This document shows positions 2,764 to 50,896 of a DNA stretch of 53,185 nucleotides, piece after piece; within the stretch, counting starts at the first letter, position 1; each line of letters begins with the position of its first letter. A program made the translations under genes and the position numbers. This stretch comes from a virus (taxonomy: Duplodnaviria > Caudoviricetes). Location: positions 1 through 53,185 of the IMG/VR virus record IMGVR_UViG_3300032770_000027; one strand, given 5' to 3'. The notes under the pieces are model-generated. The model ran no database searches, had not been told where the DNA came from, and saw only the letters and a program-made list of their open reading frames with translations.

Positions 2764-3034
2764 CAGTTTTTGCCGGTTGAGCCGTTTTCGGGAATTGAAG
2801 CTTGCGACGGGCAAGCCGTGCTTTGCGCCGCGCCTTGTTCCGTTCTGTCCTCAAAAACTGGCGTTCGTAATAGCCTTTTTTGATGCCGCTCCTGTGCAAT
2901 TTTTTCTTGTTCATGGTATCGGTTTGGCCGTGTCTTGCCTTTGATCTTCCGCCCGTGATCAATGCAAACCGGGAAGCCCGCCGGAGTAACCCAGCAGGCA
3001 ACCCGGTCGCATCCCGCCACGTGGCAGCCTCTCA

Positions 3035-3385
3035 TTAGTCGGGTAGGGTTGAAGTGTTTTCGGGAACTTTGTTTACCGTGGCGTAAATCGTCCACGCCAG
3101 ATACTGCGGGTCGATTTCCTGCTTTTCCAGTTCGGTTTGAAGCGTCTGGAAATACCGTTTCAATTGGCGGAATTGTTCCACCGGGTTGTGTTTGTTCAAT
3201 GCGATTATTTCACCGGTTCGCTGAACCTGTTCAGGTGTCAGAATGCGTTCAAGCGGGACGGCCCGCCAATCCTGCGGGATGCCGCTTGCCGGGCGTTGTA
3301 TCTCACCCGGCGCGACATCCGGCAACACTGCCGGTTGTTTTACCATGCGGACATCGAAGCCCGCGTTTAGAATAACTTTTGCCAT
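3035..3385 (-). CDS. Hypothetical protein
   Basis: 116-aa ORF in the minus-strand run. Confidence 0.65.
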   Translation of the reverse strand: MAKVILNAGFDVRMVKQPAVLPDVAPGEIQRPASGIPQDWRAVPLERILTPEQVQRTGEIIALNKHNPVEQFRQLKRYFQTLQTELEKQEIDPQYLAWTIYATVNKVPENTSTLPD

Positions 3386-14702: not shown

Positions 14703-16331
14703 TTACGACAACTTCCACGGAATGTTGAGGAACAGGCAGGGGCCAACAAGCTGGACCTGCGCTCCAACAACCGTCCAAGTGCCGAGAATGGAAACGTTCG
14801 CGTTGAGCTGGGCAACCAAAGTGGTGACCGTTGACGCGCCAGTGATGGCGGCATGCTCAACCGTTTCATTGTTACACGTGATGGTGTCTGCAAGGACTTC
14901 ATACGTGTTGGTCGTGGTATCAAGCTGCGGAGTAAACAACAGCGTGTTACCGGTGGACGTGCAGTTCGGATCAGCCGAGCTGTAGCTCTGCGTCGGGTAT
15001 CCGGGATCGGCATTGCAGGTGCTGATCTGGATGATGCAGGCGGGTTCCCGCTTGTGGAAAATCAAGCACAGGAATTCCGTGTGATTTGGAGCTGCGGCCT
15101 GCTTAAAGTCAGCAATGAACTGACCTTTGTTGCGCCGCTTGTTCTGAATCACCACACCACTGGCATCCGCGCCAAGGTTATCCATGACGAACTGCCACTT
15201 GCCGCCGAAATTTCGGCTGGCGAACGGCATTTCCGGGTTCACCGGCATCGCTTCCGCCACGAGCATTTCGATGCCCTTGGCGTGCCAGACATACGAGAAC
15301 GCATACTGGGCATTGTCGAAGTCTATGTTGGCGATGGATCGCAAACCAGACGCCGAACCGGCACCGCTGGACGGAATGTTCTTGTAGGGTAAAACAACCT
15401 GATAGCGGTAGTTGCCAGACGCAGTCAAAGATCCCGCAACCAGACCAACAAAGTTGAAGCGCAATCCAGTCGGATCAATTCGACCGGCATAATTACCGAT
15501 CTGTCCGCTGAAACCATAGCGCCAGTATTTGTTGGCAGCGTCCCATTCGGTGAAACGCCAGTTGCCGGTGATGGAAGGCGTTCCCCCGATTCCCTGCTGT
15601 CCGCCGAGCCGGTCCAGTTCCCAGATGGTCTGGGTATCCGTGACCAGTTCAAGCATGGGTGGAGTCTGTTCCTTGAACGGATTCTCCCCGAGATAACCAA
15701 TGCGAAGCAGCGGTTCCACCATGCGCTGAAGCATCTGCGGAGTCAGCTTATAGACATTGGTGTTAGGACAATTAGTGTCGATGTAAATTTCCTGAGTCCC
15801 GACGACTACGAAATTGAACACGAACTGGGTTTGAGAATTGCCAAAGCTGGAATTGGCAATGAATTTGTTGTCGGCCAGAATCGCACCGCGTTTCCGCAGG
15901 TAGGTGTTCTGAATCTCAATAGTGGCCGGTTTCAAAATCTTGCTGATGATGTATCGGAATTGCTCCCGGGCATGCGTAATGTGCATGTCCTGATCGAAGC
16001 ACAGCAACTGGGTCTGCCAGCTCTGCTGCTCCAAACCATAGATCAGCCGGGTCGATCCCCAACCAATTGCGGTTTCATTCGGATCGCAAGGAGTGCCGAC
16101 ACAGGAGCTGTCGTTAACCGGATTCCACGTTTGAGTGGTATCAGGATAGACATGGTTGAAACGATCGCGAGTATGCTGTGTGCCGCTCCATGCCGCGAAG
16201 GTTCCTGAAGTTACGTGGGCCACCCAGCCATCCGAGGGACGAATATCCTCGATGATGTATTTGTCATACACCGGCTGTTGATCCACCAAAAACTGCGTAA
16301 AAGACGTTGCCGAAACAATAGTTCCCGCCAT
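14703..16331 (-). CDS. Major capsid protein (542 aa, with C-terminal extension)
   Basis: Likely start MAGTIV at 16331; size, own promoter and downstream hairpin fit; HK97-like spine helix segment (AREQFRYIISKILKPATIEIQNTYLR). Assigned by context and by eye. Confidence 0.65.
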   Translation of the reverse strand: MAGTIVSATSFTQFLVDQQPVYDKYIIEDIRPSDGWVAHVTSGTFAAWSGTQHTRDRFNHVYPDTTQTWNPVNDSSCVGTPCDPNETAIGWGSTRLIYGLEQQSWQTQLLCFDQDMHITHAREQFRYIISKILKPATIEIQNTYLRKRGAILADNKFIANSSFGNSQTQFVFNFVVVGTQEIYIDTNCPNTNVYKLTPQMLQRMVEPLLRIGYLGENPFKEQTPPMLELVTDTQTIWELDRLGGQQGIGGTPSITGNWRFTEWDAANKYWRYGFSGQIGNYAGRIDPTGLRFNFVGLVAGSLTASGNYRYQVVLPYKNIPSSGAGSASGLRSIANIDFDNAQYAFSYVWHAKGIEMLVAEAMPVNPEMPFASRNFGGKWQFVMDNLGADASGVVIQNKRRNKGQFIADFKQAAAPNHTEFLCLIFHKREPACIIQISTCNADPGYPTQSYSSADPNCTSTGNTLLFTPQLDTTTNTYEVLADTITCNNETVEHAAITGASTVTTLVAQLNANVSILGTWTVVGAQVQLVGPCLFLNIPWKLS

Positions 16332-16537
16332 AAAACAAAATTTGCATTGTTCAAGTCGATTGCTCCCGGGCACAACATGTGCGCGAAAGACTTCACGGGA
16401 ATTTTTGAAGCGGCGAACTCTAGTGGACTTCCCAGTCCGGGACACGCCGATTTTAGGATTGCATCGGTATCGTCAGACCGACGAACTGTAGTCCGGCGTC
16501 GAGCCGGTGGCGCTACCTGTTGGTAGCCGATGGAGGA

Positions 16538-17114: not shown

Positions 17115-18203
17115 TTATTGCTGCTTCAAAATGACAAGGTGAATTAGCGATCCATTCAATTCAACCGCTTCGCCAACGTAACCGTCAGCAGTAAGTCCGG
17201 TGATTTCCACGTCCGGTTCACCGTTGCTCGGCTTGTGACGAAAAATCTGGTTGGTCTTATAGTCCAGCGCCAGAATCCGGTTCACCTGCTTCACGGCGTT
17301 TTCCGGTTTGTATTCGAACACGCTTTCGGTATCGCCACCGATCACGTCGCTGCCCAAACGCTTTACTGCTGAATCGTGCAAGGCTTTCCACGAGGCTTTA
17401 TGGTCGAACACTTCAATTGTCTCCACGCCGTTCTGGTTGATCATCGCAAGGCCGGCCTGATTTTCCACCAGCTTGATCTTGGACAGGATCTCGTCAAAGT
17501 GCATCGCAAACTCTTTGAAGTTGCTATGCAGGTCGTCAATTTTGCTTGGGCCGGCAAATACCGATGAGGCGCTGATAGGAACGCAACTTTCATCCGAACC
17601 ACCCATCATATAACTTCCGACTGACTGACCAGAACGTCCACGAACCGCCCCGTGGGAACCACTGCTGAAAAACGCATGCCCGGCAGCGGATTTTTCCACT
17701 TTGGTTTTCCCCATCTTCGCGTTCATTTCAGCGTTTGATGCCATCACGTTGGACCATGTCGATGACTGATCGGCAAAATGGTAACCGCTGGTGTAATTCT
17801 TTTTGTCGAAGTTGAGCGGAGTGATACCACCGTAGAGAACCTTGGAGTTCGGGCTGATTCCACGACTGGCATGCACACACCGGACACCGAGTTTTTGTTT
17901 CTTGCCCGGAAACAAAACTGCGCTACGCATCAGCGCCCGTTCCTGAGTTGATCCCTTGAAGATCGTTCCCGATCGCATGAAAACATTCAGGTCGGTTGTG
18001 TTGTGGGCTTCCATTTCGTCGATCCGGCCAGTGTCAAACACGTTGACCTTTTCGGTTTCCGGGAAGGTGATGTATTGCCGGGAAATGGACGTGCTGCGCA
18101 AAATTGGAAGCACGACCGCAAGAGATTTTTCGTCGATTCGAACCGGCTTGCCGTAGGAGTAGCCGAGTTTTTCCTCGGCCAATGAGGACAGAATTTTTAA
18201 CAT
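17115..18203 (-). CDS. ARPP-1 / DUF6569-family protein
   Basis: NTTDLNVFMRSGTIFKGSTQERAL...LGVRCVHASR matches the family pattern N...GxxxxGxxQxR...V-x-CV-x-x-x-R; start MLKIL at 18203 lies downstream of the promoter. Confidence 0.65.
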   Translation of the reverse strand: MLKILSSLAEEKLGYSYGKPVRIDEKSLAVVLPILRSTSISRQYITFPETEKVNVFDTGRIDEMEAHNTTDLNVFMRSGTIFKGSTQERALMRSAVLFPGKKQKLGVRCVHASRGISPNSKVLYGGITPLNFDKKNYTSGYHFADQSSTWSNVMASNAEMNAKMGKTKVEKSAAGHAFFSSGSHGAVRGRSGQSVGSYMMGGSDESCVPISASSVFAGPSKIDDLHSNFKEFAMHFDEILSKIKLVENQAGLAMINQNGVETIEVFDHKASWKALHDSAVKRLGSDVIGGDTESVFEYKPENAVKQVNRILALDYKTNQIFRHKPSNGEPDVEITGLTADGYVGEAVELNGSLIHLVILKQQ

Positions 18204-18245
18204 AGAATACTTTCTTTTACACCGGGATACTTCCCGGATGGTGTG

Positions 18246-18274
18246 TTTATACAATGAGTGCGTAACGCAGTCAA
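18246..18274 (-). promoter_or_regulatory. Sigma70-like promoter with the same palindromic operator
   Basis: TTGACT-17 nt-TATAAA; GCGTAACGC at 18260-18268 in the spacer. Confidence 0.7.
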
Positions 18275-32146: not shown

Positions 32147-32932
32147 TTAGAACAGTTTGATGGCGAGTATGCTTGCCTCCACAACGTTCACACTGCCAGC
32201 ACCGGGAGCCGCCGAAACCGTTCCAAAAATTTCAATCTTGTCGTTCGCAGCAGCGGAGTAAACAACTGCCGGAAACGGAAAATCTGCAAAAGTTTGAGTG
32301 ATGGTGGTCGGCGTTCCGGTGGCAAGAGCAATGGTGGTGTTGGCCAGATCGGCGGGACCATTCGTGACTTCCCGCAACTTGACAGTGATCGTCTGATTGC
32401 CCGCAAACGTAGTCCCGACAAAATCAATTCTGAGTTTTGCGATCAAAAGATAACTGCCTTGAGCAAGCGTGACACTGTTGGTCAAAAGTTGAACTGAAGA
32501 ATTGGTGAGAGCTTGCGAGCCGCCAACCACATAACTGGAAATCGCTGGAAGCAATGACTGATTTGTGCCCTGCAATCCCGATGGCGTCACACCGGCACCG
32601 GCACCGATGACTGTGGTTGGTGCAACGTCCCCGGTGTAACCCAGAAATTTAACCGTCAAAGACGTGACGGTTGGAATCGCGGTGACCTGCCAGTTGGAAG
32701 GTCCGAAAATGAAAACATTTTCGCCAATGACCGCCCACGAAGAAATACCGACCGCAATGGTGACGGTATTTCCAATCGCGGGAACGGTGAAGTCTGACGT
32801 GGTGATCGTAAAAGCATTGATCCCGTTCGTCCCGTTCGCGCCATCATTTCCCTTGGCACCAGCAATGCCGGGAACGTTGACCAGTGTTGGTTGCGGGCAT
32901 GGTGTGCAGCATCCAATTACTGAATCACTCAT
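32147..32932 (-). CDS. Fibre-like protein with a short collagen-like segment
   Basis: GIAGAKGNDGANGTNG (G-X-Y) followed by beta-rich domains; start MSDSV at 32932. Confidence 0.6.
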   Translation of the reverse strand: MSDSVIGCCTPCPQPTLVNVPGIAGAKGNDGANGTNGINAFTITTSDFTVPAIGNTVTIAVGISSWAVIGENVFIFGPSNWQVTAIPTVTSLTVKFLGYTGDVAPTTVIGAGAGVTPSGLQGTNQSLLPAISSYVVGGSQALTNSSVQLLTNSVTLAQGSYLLIAKLRIDFVGTTFAGNQTITVKLREVTNGPADLANTTIALATGTPTTITQTFADFPFPAVVYSAAANDKIEIFGTVSAAPGAGSVNVVEASILAIKLF

Positions 32933-32979
32933 ATTGATCTGGAATTTCTCTCCGACAGGTTCTAAAGTCAATTACTCCG

Positions 32980-34761
32980 ATGATCAAATATGGAATGGAT
33001 TTCGGTCCGAATGCCACCGACCTTCAGGTCGAAATGGAAATGATCCGGCGGGGTGGCAAAATTGGGTTGAATGGCAACGGACTATCCTACCACTACGAAC
33101 AGATGCGTAAAATCATCTGGCCGGAACTGGATGAGCATCGCTGGCACAACCTGTGCCGGGACGAAATCCTGAAAAACAAGGTCACTGTATTGATGGGTCC
33201 GGGTTCCTGCGGGAAAACCCACGAGGCGGCATGGATTTACCTGTGTGAATACTGGTGCTTTCCGGAAGAAACCTGTGTCTTGGTTTCGAGCACTCACATG
33301 CAGGGACTGCGTCTGCGCGTCTGGGGAGAGATCACCATGCTGTGGCAAAAGGGGCTGGATCGCTTTCCTGAGCTGTCTGGGCATCTTTTAGACGCAAAGG
33401 TGGCCATTACCACTGACGACATCGAGGATGGGGATTTCAACGAGCGGCGGGCGCGAGATCTGCGGAAAGGGATTGTCGGGATTCCGTGTGTTCAGGGTGG
33501 AAAATTTGTCGGGTTGTCGAAATACATGGGGATTAAACAGAAAAGGATGCGGTTAATCGCGGACGAAGCCAGCGCCATGGGAGAATCATTCCTGTCAGCC
33601 TTCTCAAACCTCAATAAAAACGAGGATTTTCGAGCCATAATTCTCGGCAATCCGAACGATCCCCTCGACCCGCTTGGAAAGGCAGCCGAACCAATCGACG
33701 GATGGGGTTCTCATTTGGAACCGTCAAAAACTGATGTTTGGAAAACCCGATTCATGAACGGAACCTGCGTCAATTTGATCGGCACAGACAGCCCCAACTT
33801 TGATTTTCCGCCAGACCAACCAACCCGTTACAAATATCTGATAAGCCGGGAAAAAATAGCTGAAACACTGTCCTTTTTTGCCAAGGATTCAACCGAGTAT
33901 TACAGCCAATGTGTCGGGGTTATGAAAATCGGCTTGTTGGCAAAACGCGTCCTCACCCGGGAAATATGCCGACAATTCAAAGCGACTGACGAAGTTGTGT
34001 GGCAAGGATCGGACCGGGTCAAAATCGCGGGGCTGGACGCATCCTACGGTGGAGACCGATGCGCGTTAAGCCATGCAGAATTTGGAAAAGAAAATCAGAC
34101 CGGCAACATCGTCGTGGCGCTTCATCCGATCACCATTGTTCCTGTGAAGCCTTCCAGTGACAAAATCCCGGAGGATCAGATTGCGGAGTTCTGTCGGAAT
34201 TACTGCAATCAGCATGGGATTCCTGCTGAAAACTTTTTTCATGATTCCACCGGTCGAGGAACTCTTGGCACGTCATTAGCCCGTATCTGGTCGTCAGCAT
34301 GCAATCCAGTGGAATTTGGCGGTTCACCGACTGAGCGTCCTGTTTCATTAAACCTTTACATATATGACGAGAAGGAACAGCGCAAGCGCCTCAAAAAGTG
34401 CAAGGAGCACTACAGCAAATTTGTTACAGAGCTGTGGTATCAAGTGAGGTATTGCGTAGAGGGTTCGCAACTTCGCGGGTTGCCGGAGGATGCCATGGAT
34501 GAGTTTTGCCTGCGGAACTGGGACTACGTCAGTGGAAATAAAATTGAGGTTGAACCCAAAAGTGACATGAAGGAACGCACCGGTCGCAGTCCTGACCTTG
34601 CTGATTGCATTACAATCATCCTTGAAGGCTGCCGCCGGAAGGGATTTCAGCTTCAGAAACTCGGGAGCGATGAAAAGGAGGAGGAAAACAAGTCGTGGAT
34701 GGAAACGCTTTATCGCAAACAACGAACACTTGCAGCACAACACCAGTTGACATACAAATGA
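32980..34761 (+). CDS. terL: Terminase large subunit
   Basis: Walker A GPGSCGKT, Walker B LIADEA, motif III LGNP, nuclease GLDASYGGD and SPDLAD. Confidence 0.92.
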   Translation: MIKYGMDFGPNATDLQVEMEMIRRGGKIGLNGNGLSYHYEQMRKIIWPELDEHRWHNLCRDEILKNKVTVLMGPGSCGKTHEAAWIYLCEYWCFPEETCVLVSSTHMQGLRLRVWGEITMLWQKGLDRFPELSGHLLDAKVAITTDDIEDGDFNERRARDLRKGIVGIPCVQGGKFVGLSKYMGIKQKRMRLIADEASAMGESFLSAFSNLNKNEDFRAIILGNPNDPLDPLGKAAEPIDGWGSHLEPSKTDVWKTRFMNGTCVNLIGTDSPNFDFPPDQPTRYKYLISREKIAETLSFFAKDSTEYYSQCVGVMKIGLLAKRVLTREICRQFKATDEVVWQGSDRVKIAGLDASYGGDRCALSHAEFGKENQTGNIVVALHPITIVPVKPSSDKIPEDQIAEFCRNYCNQHGIPAENFFHDSTGRGTLGTSLARIWSSACNPVEFGGSPTERPVSLNLYIYDEKEQRKRLKKCKEHYSKFVTELWYQVRYCVEGSQLRGLPEDAMDEFCLRNWDYVSGNKIEVEPKSDMKERTGRSPDLADCITIILEGCRRKGFQLQKLGSDEKEEENKSWMETLYRKQRTLAAQHQLTYK

Positions 34762-37966: not shown

Positions 37967-38195
37967 GACGGCGTCACAAAAAGCGATAGGAAGCCGGGTG
38001 ATTGACGTTGGCAACGAAATCAAAGCCACTTCTCCAATCCAAAAAGGGGTTCAGGTTTCAGTAAAGCCATACGCCGGACAGGAAATCGAGCTGAACGGTG
38101 AGCATTATTTTCTGGTCGATCCGGAAGATATTCTCGGCATCGTTGAACTGATCCCGGAAGAACCAAAATTGAGTATCGTGACGCCGGAAAAATGA
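37875..38195 (+). CDS. groES: Co-chaperonin GroES (Cpn10)
   Basis: FTPLGRRILIK...TDSGALHLP...VIDVG...YAGQEIELNGEHY...EDILGIV. Confidence 0.9.
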   Translation: MKIKFTPLGRRILIKHEYKNKTDSGALHLPETASQKAIGSRVIDVGNEIKATSPIQKGVQVSVKPYAGQEIELNGEHYFLVDPEDILGIVELIPEEPKLSIVTPEK

Positions 38196-38707
38196 ACACT
38201 GTCGGAAAAATTATCCCGCCACAATGTCTGGTCACCGAGCGGGAAAAACTCCGCAAGTATGAATTCAAGGTCATTGTCACCAACGGGTGTTTTGACATCC
38301 TTCATTCCGGCCACGTTGACTATCTGGAAAAAGCTGCGTCCATGCTTGATGACTACAGGGGTCATAGCATGGCGTTCCTGCTCGTCGGATTGAACAGCGA
38401 TGATTCAGTCAGAAAGTTGAAAGGTCCAACCCGACCCATAAACAATCAGAACGACCGCGCCCGCGTGCTGGCTGCACTTGAATGTGTTGATGGGGTTTGC
38501 ATCTTTTCCAATGTGAGAGCAACTGAATTTTTGAAGGTGGCACAACCTGACTATTACGTAAAAGGCGGAGATTACACACTCGAAACCTTGGACAAGGATG
38601 AACGTGCTGCACTCGAATTCATGGGGACGAAAATCACATTTTTCCCAACCACAACCGGAAAATCCACGTCAGAAACCTTGGCCAAAATCCAATTGACAAT
38701 GCCGTGA
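38192..38707 (+). CDS. D-glycero-beta-D-manno-heptose-1-phosphate adenylyltransferase (HldE/RfaE domain II)
   Basis: TNGCFDILHSGHVDYL...VGLNSDDSVRKLKGPTRPIN...RARVLAALECVD...VKGGDY...GKSTS. Confidence 0.9.
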   Translation: MNTVGKIIPPQCLVTEREKLRKYEFKVIVTNGCFDILHSGHVDYLEKAASMLDDYRGHSMAFLLVGLNSDDSVRKLKGPTRPINNQNDRARVLAALECVDGVCIFSNVRATEFLKVAQPDYYVKGGDYTLETLDKDERAALEFMGTKITFFPTTTGKSTSETLAKIQLTMP

Positions 38708-43414: not shown

Positions 43415-44734
43415 ATGCCCGCTGAAGCCCCTCCCGTTTCCGCAATCCCAGTTTCCGCACCGTTACCCTCACCCGGCTCTGCCGACGCCGGACAATCGCA
43501 GTCGCCGTCAGCCGGCGCTGACTTCGACAGTTATTTCACCAATGAACCACCCGCCCCAACTCCCGGGCCGGGCAAGCCGGCCAACAAAAGCGGAGACCCT
43601 ATTGGCAAACCAGCCACGCCACCGGTTAAAGAAGTTCCAATCCGACCTGAAGCGGCTGGCAGTGGAAAGAAAAATGAGCAACCGACCGAAAAACCAGCCG
43701 AACAAGCCAAACCTGACAATGGATCTCCTGTTAAGGGGGATAAAAATTTACCGGGAGACAATGCGAAGCCGGAAGCTGGAAAGGCGGATAAAAAGCCTAG
43801 AGAAACACCTTGGCAAATAATCCACCGCTACGAAAAGGAATTGGGCGATCTCCGGAAAGAAAAGGAGACGTGGACCAAACAGACAAACGGCGACCATCCG
43901 GAACTGAAATCTGCCAAGGAACAGCTCACGGCTTTGCAAAAACGGGCTGAGGATCTGGAAACGCGCCTGAAGTTCGCCGATTACAGCCAGTCTGACGAGT
44001 TCAAGGAAAAATACGAAGCTCCATTCCTTGATGCCTACATGGCTGGCCGGTCCCGCGCCGCCGGACTGATGGTCAACGTCGAAGGCCAGAACCCGCGCAA
44101 GGGCACGGCTGAAGATTTCGACACAATCATGAGCATTCCAAATGACGATCAAGCCGCTGAAGCCGCGATTGAAATGTTTGGGAGTAAAGCTCCGCTCGTG
44201 ATGTTCCACCGGGAAAAGGTCATGGAGCTGAACGGGGTCAAAAACAAGGCTCTTGAGGATTACCGGACAAAGGGATCTGAAACCTCCAAAAAAGCCAAAG
44301 AAGCAACCGAAAAGCAGATGGTTCAAATTGCCGGTGAGATAGAAAATCTCTGGAAAAACCATGTCGAAGCACCCCGGGAAAAATATACTCAGTATTCGAA
44401 ACCGGTAGAGGGTGACGACGAAGGGAACAAACTGCTGGAAAGGGGCTATACTCAGTCACACGAGGCTTTTTCAAACCTGAACCCATTTGACCCCAAACTC
44501 GATGCAAAACAGCGCGAGCGGATCGTCAGGCTTCACGGCATGGTCCTTAATAAGTCAGCGTGGTTCGATCGGGTAGCATTAAGAGCCACCCGTGCCGAAG
44601 CCCGGGCCAAGGAGCTGGAAGCCAAATTGGCTGAATTCGAGGCATCCGAACCCGGAGCAGACAACGGGAAGGGTCGCGGCAAAGCTCCTGTGACCGACAA
44701 TTGGGAAGCCCAGATGGAAAAATATGCCAAGTAA
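43415..44734 (+). CDS. Putative capsid scaffolding protein
   Basis: P/A/E/K-rich disordered N-terminus and long coiled coils; last gene of the packaging operon. Confidence 0.6.
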   Translation: MPAEAPPVSAIPVSAPLPSPGSADAGQSQSPSAGADFDSYFTNEPPAPTPGPGKPANKSGDPIGKPATPPVKEVPIRPEAAGSGKKNEQPTEKPAEQAKPDNGSPVKGDKNLPGDNAKPEAGKADKKPRETPWQIIHRYEKELGDLRKEKETWTKQTNGDHPELKSAKEQLTALQKRAEDLETRLKFADYSQSDEFKEKYEAPFLDAYMAGRSRAAGLMVNVEGQNPRKGTAEDFDTIMSIPNDDQAAEAAIEMFGSKAPLVMFHREKVMELNGVKNKALEDYRTKGSETSKKAKEATEKQMVQIAGEIENLWKNHVEAPREKYTQYSKPVEGDDEGNKLLERGYTQSHEAFSNLNPFDPKLDAKQRERIVRLHGMVLNKSAWFDRVALRATRAEARAKELEAKLAEFEASEPGADNGKGRGKAPVTDNWEAQMEKYAK

Positions 44735-44743
44735 AAAATTTTG

Positions 44744-44772
44744 TTGACAGGCACGTCTCAGTTTGAGATAGT
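44744..44772 (+). promoter_or_regulatory. Sigma70-like promoter
   Basis: A/T tract, then TTGACA-17 nt-GATAGT. Confidence 0.55.
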
Positions 44773-44783
44773 GTCCACGATTA

Positions 44784-44860
44784 AATGAGTGGAAAGAACA
44801 GATTAGTTTATGATTTCCGGTTACCTCAACCGGGAAACTGGCCTGTTCGGGTCATTCATT
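44784..44860 (+). ncRNA. Long imperfect hairpin (leader or small RNA)
   Basis: Nested stems AATGAGTGG/TCATTCATT, GAACAG/CTGTTC, TTAGTTT/AAACTGG and CCGGTT/AACCGG; G-U pairs favour the plus strand. Confidence 0.55.
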
Positions 44861-44867
44861 CAATCCT

Positions 44868-44901
44868 CCTACCGGTCTAACAGCCGGTAGGTGTTTTGTT
44901 T
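44868..44901 (+). terminator. Intrinsic terminator
   Basis: CCTACCGG-8 nt-CCGGTAGG followed by TGTTTTGTTT. Confidence 0.7.
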
Positions 44902-44942
44902 CAAAGTATCGGCAGACGGATTCATACCGCAGGCTCTGTCCG

Positions 44943-45153
44943 GCAGCAGCGACAACCTGTAAAACCCGGAAACGGGAGAATGTAGCAGACCCGTCCCCGT
45001 AAACAGGCCGCAAGCTACCGGTCGGCCACAATCCGGACAATAGTCCGGGCAAGGGTGATGACGGGAGGGAGTAAAGGCTATATGCTTGGCTCCAAGAAAC
45101 AGGTGAATCCGACCTGACTCCGTAACCAATCGGAGCACAGGGAAAGCTGCTGC
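44943..45153 (+). ncRNA. Unclassified ~210-nt multi-junction structured RNA upstream of an HNH gene
   Basis: Closing stem GCAGCAGC/GCTGCTGC with about nine mutually compatible nested helices, including a GAAA tetraloop hairpin. Confidence 0.6.
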
Positions 45154-45171
45154 TTTCACCAAGAAACAGGA

Positions 45172-45477
45172 ATGAGTAGAAGATCGGAATACTACCGATA
45201 CCTTGAATCTGGTCACTGGAAAAGTTTAAGAGCTAAAGTTTTTAATCGTGATGATCATCGTTGCACCAATTGCAAGACCGAAAAGAACCTCGTCGGACAT
45301 CATCTTCGATACAGAAACCCACTCACCAGATGCACTGAAAAAGATGTTGTAACACTGTGCAAATCGTGCCATAAAAAGGAGCACAGAAGATTAGCAGCGT
45401 TACGCAAATTGAACCGGAAACCAAAGTCCAATCGACATCTTGTGAAACTGATTATGAATTTCTCAGCAGAATTTTAA
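45172..45477 (+). CDS. Small HNH endonuclease
   Basis: YLESGHWKSLRAKVFNRDDHRCTNC...GHH...VTLCKSCHKKEH. Confidence 0.88.
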   Translation: MSRRSEYYRYLESGHWKSLRAKVFNRDDHRCTNCKTEKNLVGHHLRYRNPLTRCTEKDVVTLCKSCHKKEHRRLAALRKLNRKPKSNRHLVKLIMNFSAEF

Positions 45478-45562
45478 TCAGATGGTCGGACGAGCGGTCC
45501 TTGGTCCGGTTAGAAATGAGCTGGACCTGCGCGATGACTCCGACCGCCAATTTAACTGAACC

Positions 45563-45751
45563 ATGAACAAGAACCAGCGCCGATTCCGAAAGACTGCCAG
45601 CCGTAACGGGGGTGAGACACTCACCGTCCACAAGCAATACGACAGCACGTGCCGGCAGGGGAAGCCAACTGAACTTTCCCTTGTCCGGAGATCCATCCCG
45701 ATCGGCCACCAACCCCAGAAATCAAAACGGCCCAAAGTGGCCGGGAAATAA
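45563..45751 (+). CDS. Small basic hypothetical protein
   Basis: 62-aa ORF in the plus-strand run. Confidence 0.4.
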   Translation: MNKNQRRFRKTASRNGGETLTVHKQYDSTCRQGKPTELSLVRRSIPIGHQPQKSKRPKVAGK

Positions 45752-45850
45752 TCATGAACCGGTTTGGGATTGCGGCGGTGTGTTGTCTCACTGGTTATAT
45801 TACATCCCCAGCCCGGTAACCGCATAAAAGCCGGGCACTGATTTGAATGA

Positions 45851-46345
45851 ATGATCATCAAAAAAGGATCAGCAATTTATCTCGCCGACCATTCTCTCCT
45901 CACCGGCAAACTGATGGGCCTGCTCCGGGACAGCGAGGGCAAGCGTCAAGGCTGGAAACACAAAGCCCTGAACGATCAGGACACTTTGGATCGGATGGAA
46001 TGGCAGCATATCGTCGGAGCGACCGGCGAACTTGCCTTCTCCAAAATGACAGCTCTCAGATGGTCGGAATCTTACAATGCGGACCCGCACGATCCAGACG
46101 TGTTCCCGGATTGGCAGGTGAGGACACGCACTGTTCATGGTGGTGCGTTGCCAATCCGGGACCGGGATCTGCCACACCAGCGGTTTGTCCTGATGTATGT
46201 CGGATCCGATCCGTCACTCTATTTCTTCTGCGGATGGATCTGGGGCGGGATGGGAATGCAGGAGAAGTGGCGGTGCGATCCGGGCAATCGCGGGTCGTCC
46301 TGCTTCATGGTGCCACAAACTGAACTGAACGATTTGGACTTATGA
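45851..46345 (+). CDS. PD-(D/E)XK-like nuclease-fold protein
   Basis: GATGELAF...PDVFPDWQVRT pattern. Confidence 0.5.
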   Translation: MIIKKGSAIYLADHSLLTGKLMGLLRDSEGKRQGWKHKALNDQDTLDRMEWQHIVGATGELAFSKMTALRWSESYNADPHDPDVFPDWQVRTRTVHGGALPIRDRDLPHQRFVLMYVGSDPSLYFFCGWIWGGMGMQEKWRCDPGNRGSSCFMVPQTELNDLDL

Positions 46346-50200: not shown

Positions 50201-50357
50201 CACGTGCTGCTACGAGTGCCGGTTCAGGAATTTCTGTGACGGGTTGGGACTGCCGACTCCTCCTGAATTACTGGACCGGTTTACCAAAAATCCAGCCCTG
50301 ACCAGAGAGGAATTTTGGAAAATGATTGAGGGGAAAGACCCGGAAAAGGACGAGTGA
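50079..50357 (+). CDS. Zn-binding hypothetical protein
   Basis: CKRCGKPF...CYECR. Confidence 0.5.
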   Translation: MKRLPKPNDPEKLASRKTSLCKRCGKPFRPEPTGLVKTPLSTCCYECRFRNFCDGLGLPTPPELLDRFTKNPALTREEFWKMIEGKDPEKDE

Positions 50358-50896
50358 TGACCCGGAGTCAGTTAAAGAAAATGATCAATGCGGGTCAGTG
50401 GAAGCAGTTGAGCATCCTGTTCAACTTTACTCCGACATTTCTGCTTACAGAATCTGGCCGGAGTTTCATGATCGACTGGCGGTGTGTGCCGAAGGCGATG
50501 GTTGATATTCTCTGGAACACCGCCGGCATTGACTCTGATAAGCTGCTGGAAAAGTTCCAGCGCAAGGAACGAATCCGGGCGGAACTGGCACCGCGTGGAT
50601 TGAGGCTGCACACGATCCAGAACGGGCTGTGTTTCTACTGCAACAAGTTTGTGGAATATCGATCCAAGGTGAAACACAATGGCAGGAATGTTCTGGGCTG
50701 GACGATCGACCACCGGACCCCGATCTGTCGTGGTGGGGACAACTCGTGGCAGAACACGGTCGGGTGCTGTTACCAGTGCAACCATGAAAAATCGTGTCTG
50801 ACTGAGCTTGAGTTTAGAAATACTCCGGCGAAGTATCGCAAGGAGCTGGTCAAAACCATCATGCTTCAGGTGCAGACAGCAATTAAAAAGTCATGA
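50354..50896 (+). CDS. HNH endonuclease
   Basis: CFYC...TIDHRTPICRGGDNSWQNTVGCCYQCNHEK. Confidence 0.9.
   Translation: MMTRSQLKKMINAGQWKQLSILFNFTPTFLLTESGRSFMIDWRCVPKAMVDILWNTAGIDSDKLLEKFQRKERIRAELAPRGLRLHTIQNGLCFYCNKFVEYRSKVKHNGRNVLGWTIDHRTPICRGGDNSWQNTVGCCYQCNHEKSCLTELEFRNTPAKYRKELVKTIMLQVQTAIKKS

Follow-up and report, generated by a model that had tools for sequence, protein, structure and literature searches.

A conserved structured RNA family of uncultured phages and a probably independent HNH endonuclease gene at its 3' edge

In HEARO loci, a structured RNA of ~200 nt (omega-RNA) with a guide at its 5' end lies directly upstream of an HNH-containing open reading frame (ORF) encoding IscB, a protein of ~400 aa that combines a split RuvC domain, a bridge helix and HNH. 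IshB, an HNH-type protein of ~180 aa, is likewise associated with omega-RNAs, according to an excerpt of PMC11610941. In phage T4, hairpins that mask the ribosome binding site repress the translation of endonuclease genes (PMC2988022, in excerpt), and the put RNA of HK022 is a cis-acting RNA that works on RNA polymerase (PMC9378689, in excerpt). Here we describe a locus with the HEARO-like order of a structured RNA directly upstream of an HNH gene, located in an uncultured phage (Duplodnaviria; Caudoviricetes). The stretch analysed, referred to as the window throughout, is the complete IMG/VR record IMGVR_UViG_3300032770_000027, 53,185 bp with terminal repeats (a 116-bp repeat was detected by script). 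In it, a 437-nt stretch without any plus-strand ORF longer than 31 aa separates a 439-aa gene (43415–44734) from a 101-aa HNH ORF (45172–45477, +) with a basic C-terminal tail, which starts 18 nt past the helix that closes the predicted RNA (44943–45153, +). A preliminary description, made from the sequence alone, had read the pair as a large multi-junction non-coding RNA and a minimal nuclease that may work together as a compact ribonucleoprotein. We find that 44943–45153 is the core of a conserved structured RNA family in uncultured phages that lies outside Rfam; its existence on the plus strand is borne out by covariation and covariance-model matches. The locus is not a HEARO/IscB system, and probably not an IshB system either, as judged from the RNA model, the protein domains and the linkage of the two. 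The HNH gene is very probably not a partner of the RNA and would be a free-standing, homing-type endonuclease gene inserted at the RNA's 3' edge. Taken as a whole, a conserved RNA module, with a cis-acting leader as the first choice for its role, beside an independent HNH gene is an explanation that we consider reasonably probable.

Sequence searches with the window and its relatives did not reveal the family. The window has no match in Rfam 15 at gathering score and none at E ≤ 10 over 44600–45900, and seven other family members have none at E ≤ 5. Looking in the literature for earlier reports of the motif brought up nothing relevant, but the search was too thin for the family to be called unpublished. 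No RNA homologue was returned by blastn of 44735–45480 against GenBank phages, by single-protein scans of IMG/VR with the scaffold, 431-aa and 164-aa proteins, or when the intergenic region was compared with 46 related loci by nhmmer, blastn and tblastx. These related loci (36 metagenome and 10 IMG/VR loci) were recovered from an alignment of close homologues of the 439-aa gene product, here termed the scaffold protein (28 homologues, one with a phage scaffold Pfam domain). Two close homologues of this protein, P0003 and P0004, have 56–60% identity to it. Likewise, a single-sequence model of the RNA (R1) matched none of the 46 scaffold-related loci, seven related virus records and 26 HNH loci, and two other family members had no blastn match among GenBank phages.

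Relatives of the RNA were found in sequencing contigs and by motif scanning. Contigs of three public sequencing runs (X1, X2 and X3, all DNA, X1 being the probable source of the window and X3 being from another study) were compared with 44500–45900 at a likeness of at least 80%. A 179-nt X3 contig covers 44966–45144 without gaps and with 18 substitutions (90% identity), and two more X3 contigs fit 44982–45019 and 44995–45028 and continue into homologous but diverged flanks. In these diverged copies the hairpin termed a below is kept with its GAAA loop changed to GCAA, two junction motifs are unchanged, and the hairpin at 45032–49 is missing or swapped for a different 4-bp hairpin with a GAAA loop. 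No X3 contig lies over the HNH body (45158–45439), and X2 covers only 44596–44631 and 45351–45534; such blanks are not taken as evidence. Discovery in IMG/VR at the DNA level relied on exact-motif scans: an IUPAC pattern built from the motifs of the X3 copies retrieved seven loci and a second pattern four more, against chance expectations of ~0.2 and ~1 hit by our own rough estimate of the collection size. All 11 loci match covariance models over their full length (74–137 bits with R1 and 93–177 bits with R2). Two of them, L098 and L101, are identical in RNA sequence, so the 12 loci including the window comprise 11 distinct sequences. R2 found the RNA in none of 73 other loci, and three genomes of scaffold relatives also lack it. 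With a covariance model and 12 loci in hand, the family is searchable at scale and testable at the bench.

Minimum-energy folds were computed for 44905–45171, 44943–45153 and 44895–45215. Eight of the ten helices that had been drawn by eye recur in these folds (GCAGCAGC/GCTGCTGC, CCTGT/ACAGG, CCCG-GAAA-CGGG, CCCGTC/GACGGG, GGCCG/CGGCC, TCCGGAC-AATA-GTCCGGG, CAGGT/ACCTG and CTCCG/CGGAG), but ATGTAGC/GCTATAT and CTTG/CAAG do not, the stretch in question folding instead as GGAGU/GCUCC with an inner hairpin. An additional hairpin proposed at 44910–42 is seen in the 44905–45171 fold but competes with long-range pairing in the 44895–45215 fold. On the plus strand, the core is made up of P1 (44943–50/45146–53), present in the fold and in the covariance-model matches, and P2 (44956–60/45137–41), followed by hairpin a with a GNRA loop (44965–76), seen in the fold and covarying. 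The b domain (44990–98/45053–65) encloses a hairpin at 45006–27 and an optional hairpin at 45032–49, which only two members have; hairpin c (45068–93) is seen in the fold, and hairpins d (45100–16) and e (45118–35) are variable. In two members (L083 and L077) insertions of ~100 and ~200 nt occupy the position of hairpin a, and their true P1 5' strands lie farther upstream and are complementary to their own 3' strands. Two invariant segments, GUAGC in the junction that precedes helix b and GCUAC in the GGCYG hairpin loop, are complementary and suggest a possible 5-bp pseudoknot. Resemblances to a K-turn, to RNase P and to yybP were considered by eye and dropped, and ARAGORN found no tRNA. A minus-strand ORF across the region (44869–45216, 115 aa) has no Pfam or PHROG match, and we regard it as not coding because similarity comes in separate pieces that imply different frames, for example in L081.

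That this structure is under selection follows from the covariation among the 11 homologous loci, not from its energy. An 8-sequence alignment has 57 pairs, of which 19 are changed on both sides; shuffled controls give 6.9 ± 1.8 such pairs (0/500 reach 19) and slid controls 1–3. The 12-row alignment (11 distinct sequences) has 13 such pairs among 40, against 6.7 ± 1.5 in shuffles (again 0/500) and 1–4 in slid controls, and 94.4% of its cells are paired, compared with 85.5% in shuffles. Of the 39 pairs that RNAalifold predicts unaided, 12 show compensatory changes. The covarying helices are P1, a, b and the GGCYG hairpin. Helix b reads CCCGUC:GACGGG in the window and CCGCGC:GCGCGG in other members; the GGCYG hairpin reads GGCCG:CGGCC in the window and GGCUG:CAGCC or GGCUC:GAGCC elsewhere; hairpin a changes from CCCG:CGGG to CCCA:UGGG, CCCC:GGGG or CCUC:GAGG, with loops GAAA or GCAA; and P1, which is GCAGCAGC:GCUGCUGC in the window, is replaced by several different complementary versions. 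The suggestion that G-U pairs favour the plus strand holds across the family as well, one pair being U-G in 7 of the 9 sequences with letters there and another G-U in 5 of 11.

The conserved module exceeds the element first described and comprises a terminator-like hairpin, a linker, the multi-branch core and a tail; in an alignment extended to cover it, 84 columns are invariant in 11 sequences. The terminator-like element (44868–44901, +) is a GC-rich hairpin of nine pairs followed by the T-run TGTTTTGTTT, ~40–45 nt upstream of P1. In 9/11 members a stem runs into a T-run 27–56 nt before P1, with stem sequences that differ; L079 has one farther upstream, as judged by eye, and none was seen in L098. 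The linker from the T-run to P1 (44902–44942, +) includes the 44910–42 hairpin, its invariant columns begin ~16 nt before P1, and it contains a 4-bp hairpin in which two pairs are changed on both sides across the family. The 3' tail (TTTCACC..., 45154–45171, +) is conserved in all 11 aligned members and, in the window, ends 1 nt before the HNH start codon.

What the RNA does is judged here from its DNA context. One transcription unit would end before the module, and a block of mostly small genes on the same strand would follow it. Our leading, though tentative, proposal, which we rate at a little short of an even chance, is that the module forms the 5' leader of this block and acts in cis, for instance in sensing, in antitermination or in RNA processing. 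A conserved, covarying structure 5' of same-strand genes was indeed found: a same-strand ORF follows P1 at 19–110 nt in most members, and its family varies. In the window it is the HNH gene (+19 nt), in L083 an endonuclease VII-like gene (E 2.8e-6, +44 nt), in L081 and L082 phrog_15768 (about +39 nt), in L100 a PAPS-reductase-like gene (+51 nt), in L098 and L101 a 146-aa ORF (+88 nt) and in L080 a 72-aa ORF (+104 nt), the last two with no assigned family. Farther away lie a homologue of window 48147–48689 in L078 (+162 nt) and a phrog_15768-like ORF in L099 (+366 nt). Structured RNAs so large, with many invariant junction nucleotides and clear covariation, usually have an exacting task such as ligand sensing, catalysis or the binding of a cellular machine, and to our knowledge few of them are known in phages. 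GOLLD and ROOL, which are several times larger, resemble the RNA in being complex, multi-branch and without assigned function in phages, but it matches neither these nor similar Rfam families. The RNA may work like phage leader RNAs such as put, in which a conserved RNA structure likewise opens a block of phage genes near a terminator; the likeness is one of description, and here the terminator-like hairpin lies upstream of the core. The put RNA is also far smaller.

In the window, the module might also affect the gene that follows it. Long-range pairing of 44900–44915 with 45192–45207 and of 44933–41 with 45169–77, predicted with probabilities of 0.8–1.0, encloses the HNH start codon and may damp HNH translation, by analogy with the hairpins of T4-type endonuclease genes. 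The window thus shares with the T4 genes a (predicted) RNA pairing over the start region. It differs in that the upstream RNA is an independent conserved family, not the endonuclease's own hairpin, and in that Shine-Dalgarno sequences are mostly missing from the genes of the window phage. They are absent from most of the ~40 gene starts considered, which have A-rich leaders instead, a scarcity that hints at a host not relying on Shine-Dalgarno pairing.

Several points count against the leader proposal or the wider explanation to which it belongs. The downstream genes share no function, unlike those of most riboswitches. With the terminator-like hairpin upstream and not downstream of the core, there is no obvious expression platform, and no terminator was seen by eye after the core in the examined flanks of family members. 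A consensus promoter is not conserved in the 11 members. In L079 no convincing ORF follows P1 and the RNA lies between minus-strand genes, a setting more in keeping with a stand-alone RNA gene than with a leader. Because the model to which the alignments were fitted comes from the fold of the window itself, pair counts are biased towards that fold; P2 is paired in only 72% of cells, and hairpins d and e are not conserved. The start-codon pairing is seen in the window only, and by our own estimate ~0.2–0.5 such cases are expected by chance. Homing of the HNH gene is something that we infer from its distribution, and all sequencing runs listed are of DNA.

The alternative that survives best is a stand-alone, trans-acting non-coding RNA. 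Its target would be a conserved component of the host or of a defence system, bound for host take-over or in the manner of an anti-defence decoy or sponge, and the adjacent genes would be irrelevant. The RNA occurs in uncultured soil and wetland phages, some of them without recognisable shared capsid or terminase: three carriers (G011–G013) have 53–62% identity to the window in the capsid protein and 41–54% in the large terminase, and two others (G008, 75 kb, and G010) have no match to either. DNA similarity between carriers is limited to the RNA module and short flanks, the close pair L081/L082 being the exception. Such sharing across unrelated phages suggests that the function depends on something conserved, be it in the host or in transcription. 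The 84 invariant columns, kept across phages whose proteins have diverged far or are unrelated, the varying neighbours, the setting of the RNA in L079 and the single copy found in each of the seven carrier records searched would all suit a trans-acting RNA. However, no terminator was seen after the tail in the examined flanks, and most members have a same-strand ORF within 19–110 nt; we regard this alternative as serious but rather unlikely.

A further alternative is an element that would act as single-stranded or duplex DNA, for example as a replication origin or priming site or as a hotspot for recombination or cassette insertion. In the window, a 12-nt direct repeat, CCAAGAAACAGG, has one copy inside the core (45092–45103, +) and a second in the tail (45159–45170). 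In every member 7–14 nt after hairpin c recur exactly in the tail, and the repeat sequence differs between members, the two copies evolving in concert (shuffle test, p ≤ 0.0035 in 9/11 members and ~0.05 in the other two). The repeat could mark such a site, almost every member has a different gene immediately 3' of the element, nuclease genes stand at the border in two members, and phrog_15768, which recurs downstream, has no assigned function. Against this, the conserved G-U (T-G in DNA) wobble pairs and the GNRA tetraloops speak for an RNA. The ORFs scanned beside the element include no recognisable recombinase or initiator, and neither iterons nor an AT-rich stretch was found. The preliminary description had also thought of a ribozyme or of an origin or primer RNA, which may still apply; no primase or initiator was recognised among ~40 window ORFs scanned with Pfam and PHROG, a scan not exhaustive for these. 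A DNA-level role is improbable in our estimate. A common partner for both repeat copies was also sought, with unconvincing results (weak complementarity to the upstream T-run). The repeat, whose internal copy would be single-stranded and whose tail copy lies just past the closing helix of the RNA, might conceivably serve as a phage-specific "address". Through it the RNA would recognise its own 3' border, either at the RNA level or on DNA through an R-loop, and so might direct processing, priming or gene-cassette insertion there. This long shot would explain why a different gene, including two nuclease genes, follows the RNA in almost every phage, and, if true, would amount to a new kind of RNA-specified site in phage genomes.

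The reading that set the locus beside IscB and IshB, namely that the RNA guides or activates the 101-aa HNH protein as a nuclease, fares considerably worse and is largely refuted by distribution. In its favour are the adjacency of the two in the window (18 nt), the basic C-terminal tail, which is conserved in the one close relative of the protein, the endonuclease VII-like gene in the same place in L083, and the repeat itself, a short RNA segment that is identical to the DNA at the RNA's 3' border and changes from phage to phage, which is loosely guide-like. However, the HNH gene stands at only 1 of the 11 distinct RNA loci, the other 10 lacking a window-type HNH, and the RNA is found at none of 26 loci of HNH relatives, where the upstream gap is at most 100 nt in 22 of the 24 with a callable ORF. 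Three of four complete carrier genomes have no HNH homologue, and the fourth, G008, has a distant one ~27 kb from the RNA. HNH matches occur in 2/5 scaffold relatives and 1/5 RNA carriers, always elsewhere in the genome. Thus, unlike in HEARO/IscB loci, RNA and nuclease do not co-occur in relatives, and the RNA has no HEARO model match in the Rfam searches. The variable, guide-like 5' segment that might have been expected is not there either: ~45 nt upstream of P1 are conserved, and only the internal/tail repeat varies in concert. Distribution, domain content and the HEARO model being all against it, we consider an RNA-guided or RNA-activated nuclease very improbable.

The protein points the same way. 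Pfam finds in it an HNH domain alone, a weak match of 18.2 bits, with PHROG HNH families matching at E values down to 3.8e-12; as had been stated, there is no RuvC part, nor was any other domain found. IshB carries a PLMP domain plus HNH and, at ~180 aa, is longer than the 101-aa window protein, which begins directly with the helix preceding the HNH core. The pattern CxxC...HH...CxxC...H is conserved, and among 5.8 billion proteins a single close relative (P0001, 102 aa, 53% identity) was found, which has the same basic tail. An AlphaFold2 model shows a bare HNH fold (mean pLDDT 82.6), whose best whole-chain match is the HNH protein of phage GVE2 (PDB 5h0m, TM-score 0.57/0.61 over 88 columns). 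Taken by itself, the core is similar to Cas5-HNH as well, and IscB is not among the matches listed. Enzymes of the GVE2/HK97 gp74 type work with terminase and are encoded beside terminase and the cos site. The window protein resembles them in predicted fold and in its Cys/His pattern but differs in position, since its gene lies ~10 kb downstream of the large terminase gene (32980–34761), after the portal-to-scaffold genes.

A free-standing homing endonuclease fits these observations better. The gene is a small stand-alone ORF with an HNH core and occurs in patches beside conserved DNA, 1 nt past the conserved tail. Like T4-type mobE and segB, it would be a small selfish nuclease gene placed between conserved sequences and sporadic among relatives. 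The 3' edge of the RNA would be a typical landing place for such a gene because the conserved DNA occurs in relatives that lack the HNH. Adjacency to an HNH gene is thus not evidence for an RNA-guided nuclease, and the nuclease here looks like a hitch-hiker. A second, unrelated HNH gene of the window (50354–50896, +, 180 aa; Pfam HNH 21.6 bits against a cut-off of 21.4) was considered as a candidate for linkage to an RNA and rejected, there being small ORFs and no structured RNA upstream of it. A 102-aa HNH relative is encoded on L055, a contig of 58,576 nt with 27% G+C that is labelled as a Nanoarchaeota metagenome-assembled genome and may be a phage contig binned into it.

Folding energy, the property from which the element was first noticed, is better than in shuffled controls: the core folds at −88.5 kcal/mol on the plus strand (z −5.60; 0/200 shuffles fold as well) and reaches z −3.93 on the minus strand. 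A z-scan of both strands of the whole genome with RNALfold places it 10th among 160 distinct loci with z ≤ −3, and 44911(+) comes 82nd of 2352 when 270-nt windows are scanned with regression on composition. Energy alone is not decisive, because about nine other loci of the genome fold at least as well; several lie within genes, such as one antisense to the capsid gene. Those loci are all that would speak for a chance structure or a decaying, functionless remnant, a reading that is refuted by covariation, full-length homologues with compensatory changes being present at 11 other loci and in the metagenome of a second study, and that we regard as practically excluded.

The RNA module lies at a place where the genome has been rearranged. 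Gene order in the scaffold relatives is a portal-like gene, a 140-aa gene, a 431-aa gene, the scaffold gene and then a gene of ~500 aa, presumably the major capsid gene. The homologue of this last gene in the window (14703–16445) is on the minus strand, 28 kb away, so the window genome is rearranged directly after the scaffold gene. The breakpoint that splits the structural module, directly 3' of the scaffold gene, is the present site of the RNA module. In relatives the scaffold–capsid gap measures 270–3300 nt and contains variable small genes. In four of them (L008, 6111–6548; L024, 6674–7120; L027; L041) it holds an HNH gene with 27–34% identity to the window HNH, with a short or no upstream gap and no long RNA upstream. 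This interval looks like a hotspot for mobile and accessory genes; a GroES-like ORF was also noticed there, by eye, in several relatives. That the RNA might be a remnant of a capsid gene leader was considered and rejected, as leaders of the relatives are conserved only in close pairs and do not resemble the RNA. The same interval of another relative (L047, 6344–6635, +) is non-coding and folds at −132.5 kcal/mol (z −8.0) with no Rfam match; by eye, it shows a terminator, then a promoter-like site and then a second hairpin with a U-run.

Few proteins of the window have an informative annotation in Pfam or PHROG. A cytidylyltransferase-like gene (38192–38707, Pfam E 1.5e-16) lies among the head genes, and a protein with an ARPP-1 domain (17115–18254, E 2.4e-24) is encoded beside the capsid gene. 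Several further regions of strong local folding were noted. Between a divergent 867-aa gene and the large terminase gene, 32185–32979 (~795 nt) may be another structured non-coding region: 32555–32883 is among the genome's strongest local folds, with z down to −6.15 on both strands, and a 274-aa ORF drawn across 32185–32979 has no Pfam match. Top-scoring local folds also occur at 2954–3364 (−), near a strand-switch region (z −6.84 and −5.99), and at 14950–15246 (+), antisense to the capsid gene (z −6.43).

Closer to the RNA, a long imperfect hairpin (44779–44865, +) lies just upstream of the terminator-like hairpin; 44775–44905 folds at −50.4 kcal/mol (z −5.31), and the unit of hairpin and terminator (44740–44917) ranks 8th of the 160 loci by fold z. 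A weak sigma-70-like promoter match upstream of these (TTGACA-17-GATAGT, 44744–44772, +) is probably outside the conserved module. It was dropped as a part of the module, being neither significant (1 site against 2.5 expected in shuffles) nor conserved (a sigma-70-like site lies upstream in 1/11 family members, against 1.22 expected by chance). On the other side, a hairpin directly follows the HNH stop codon (45482–45555, +; −30 kcal/mol, z −2.6). A 510-nt X3 contig fits the window at 45482–45555 only, with 4 substitutions and 2 indels, whereas its flanks do not resemble the window; this hairpin therefore looks like a separate small conserved element.

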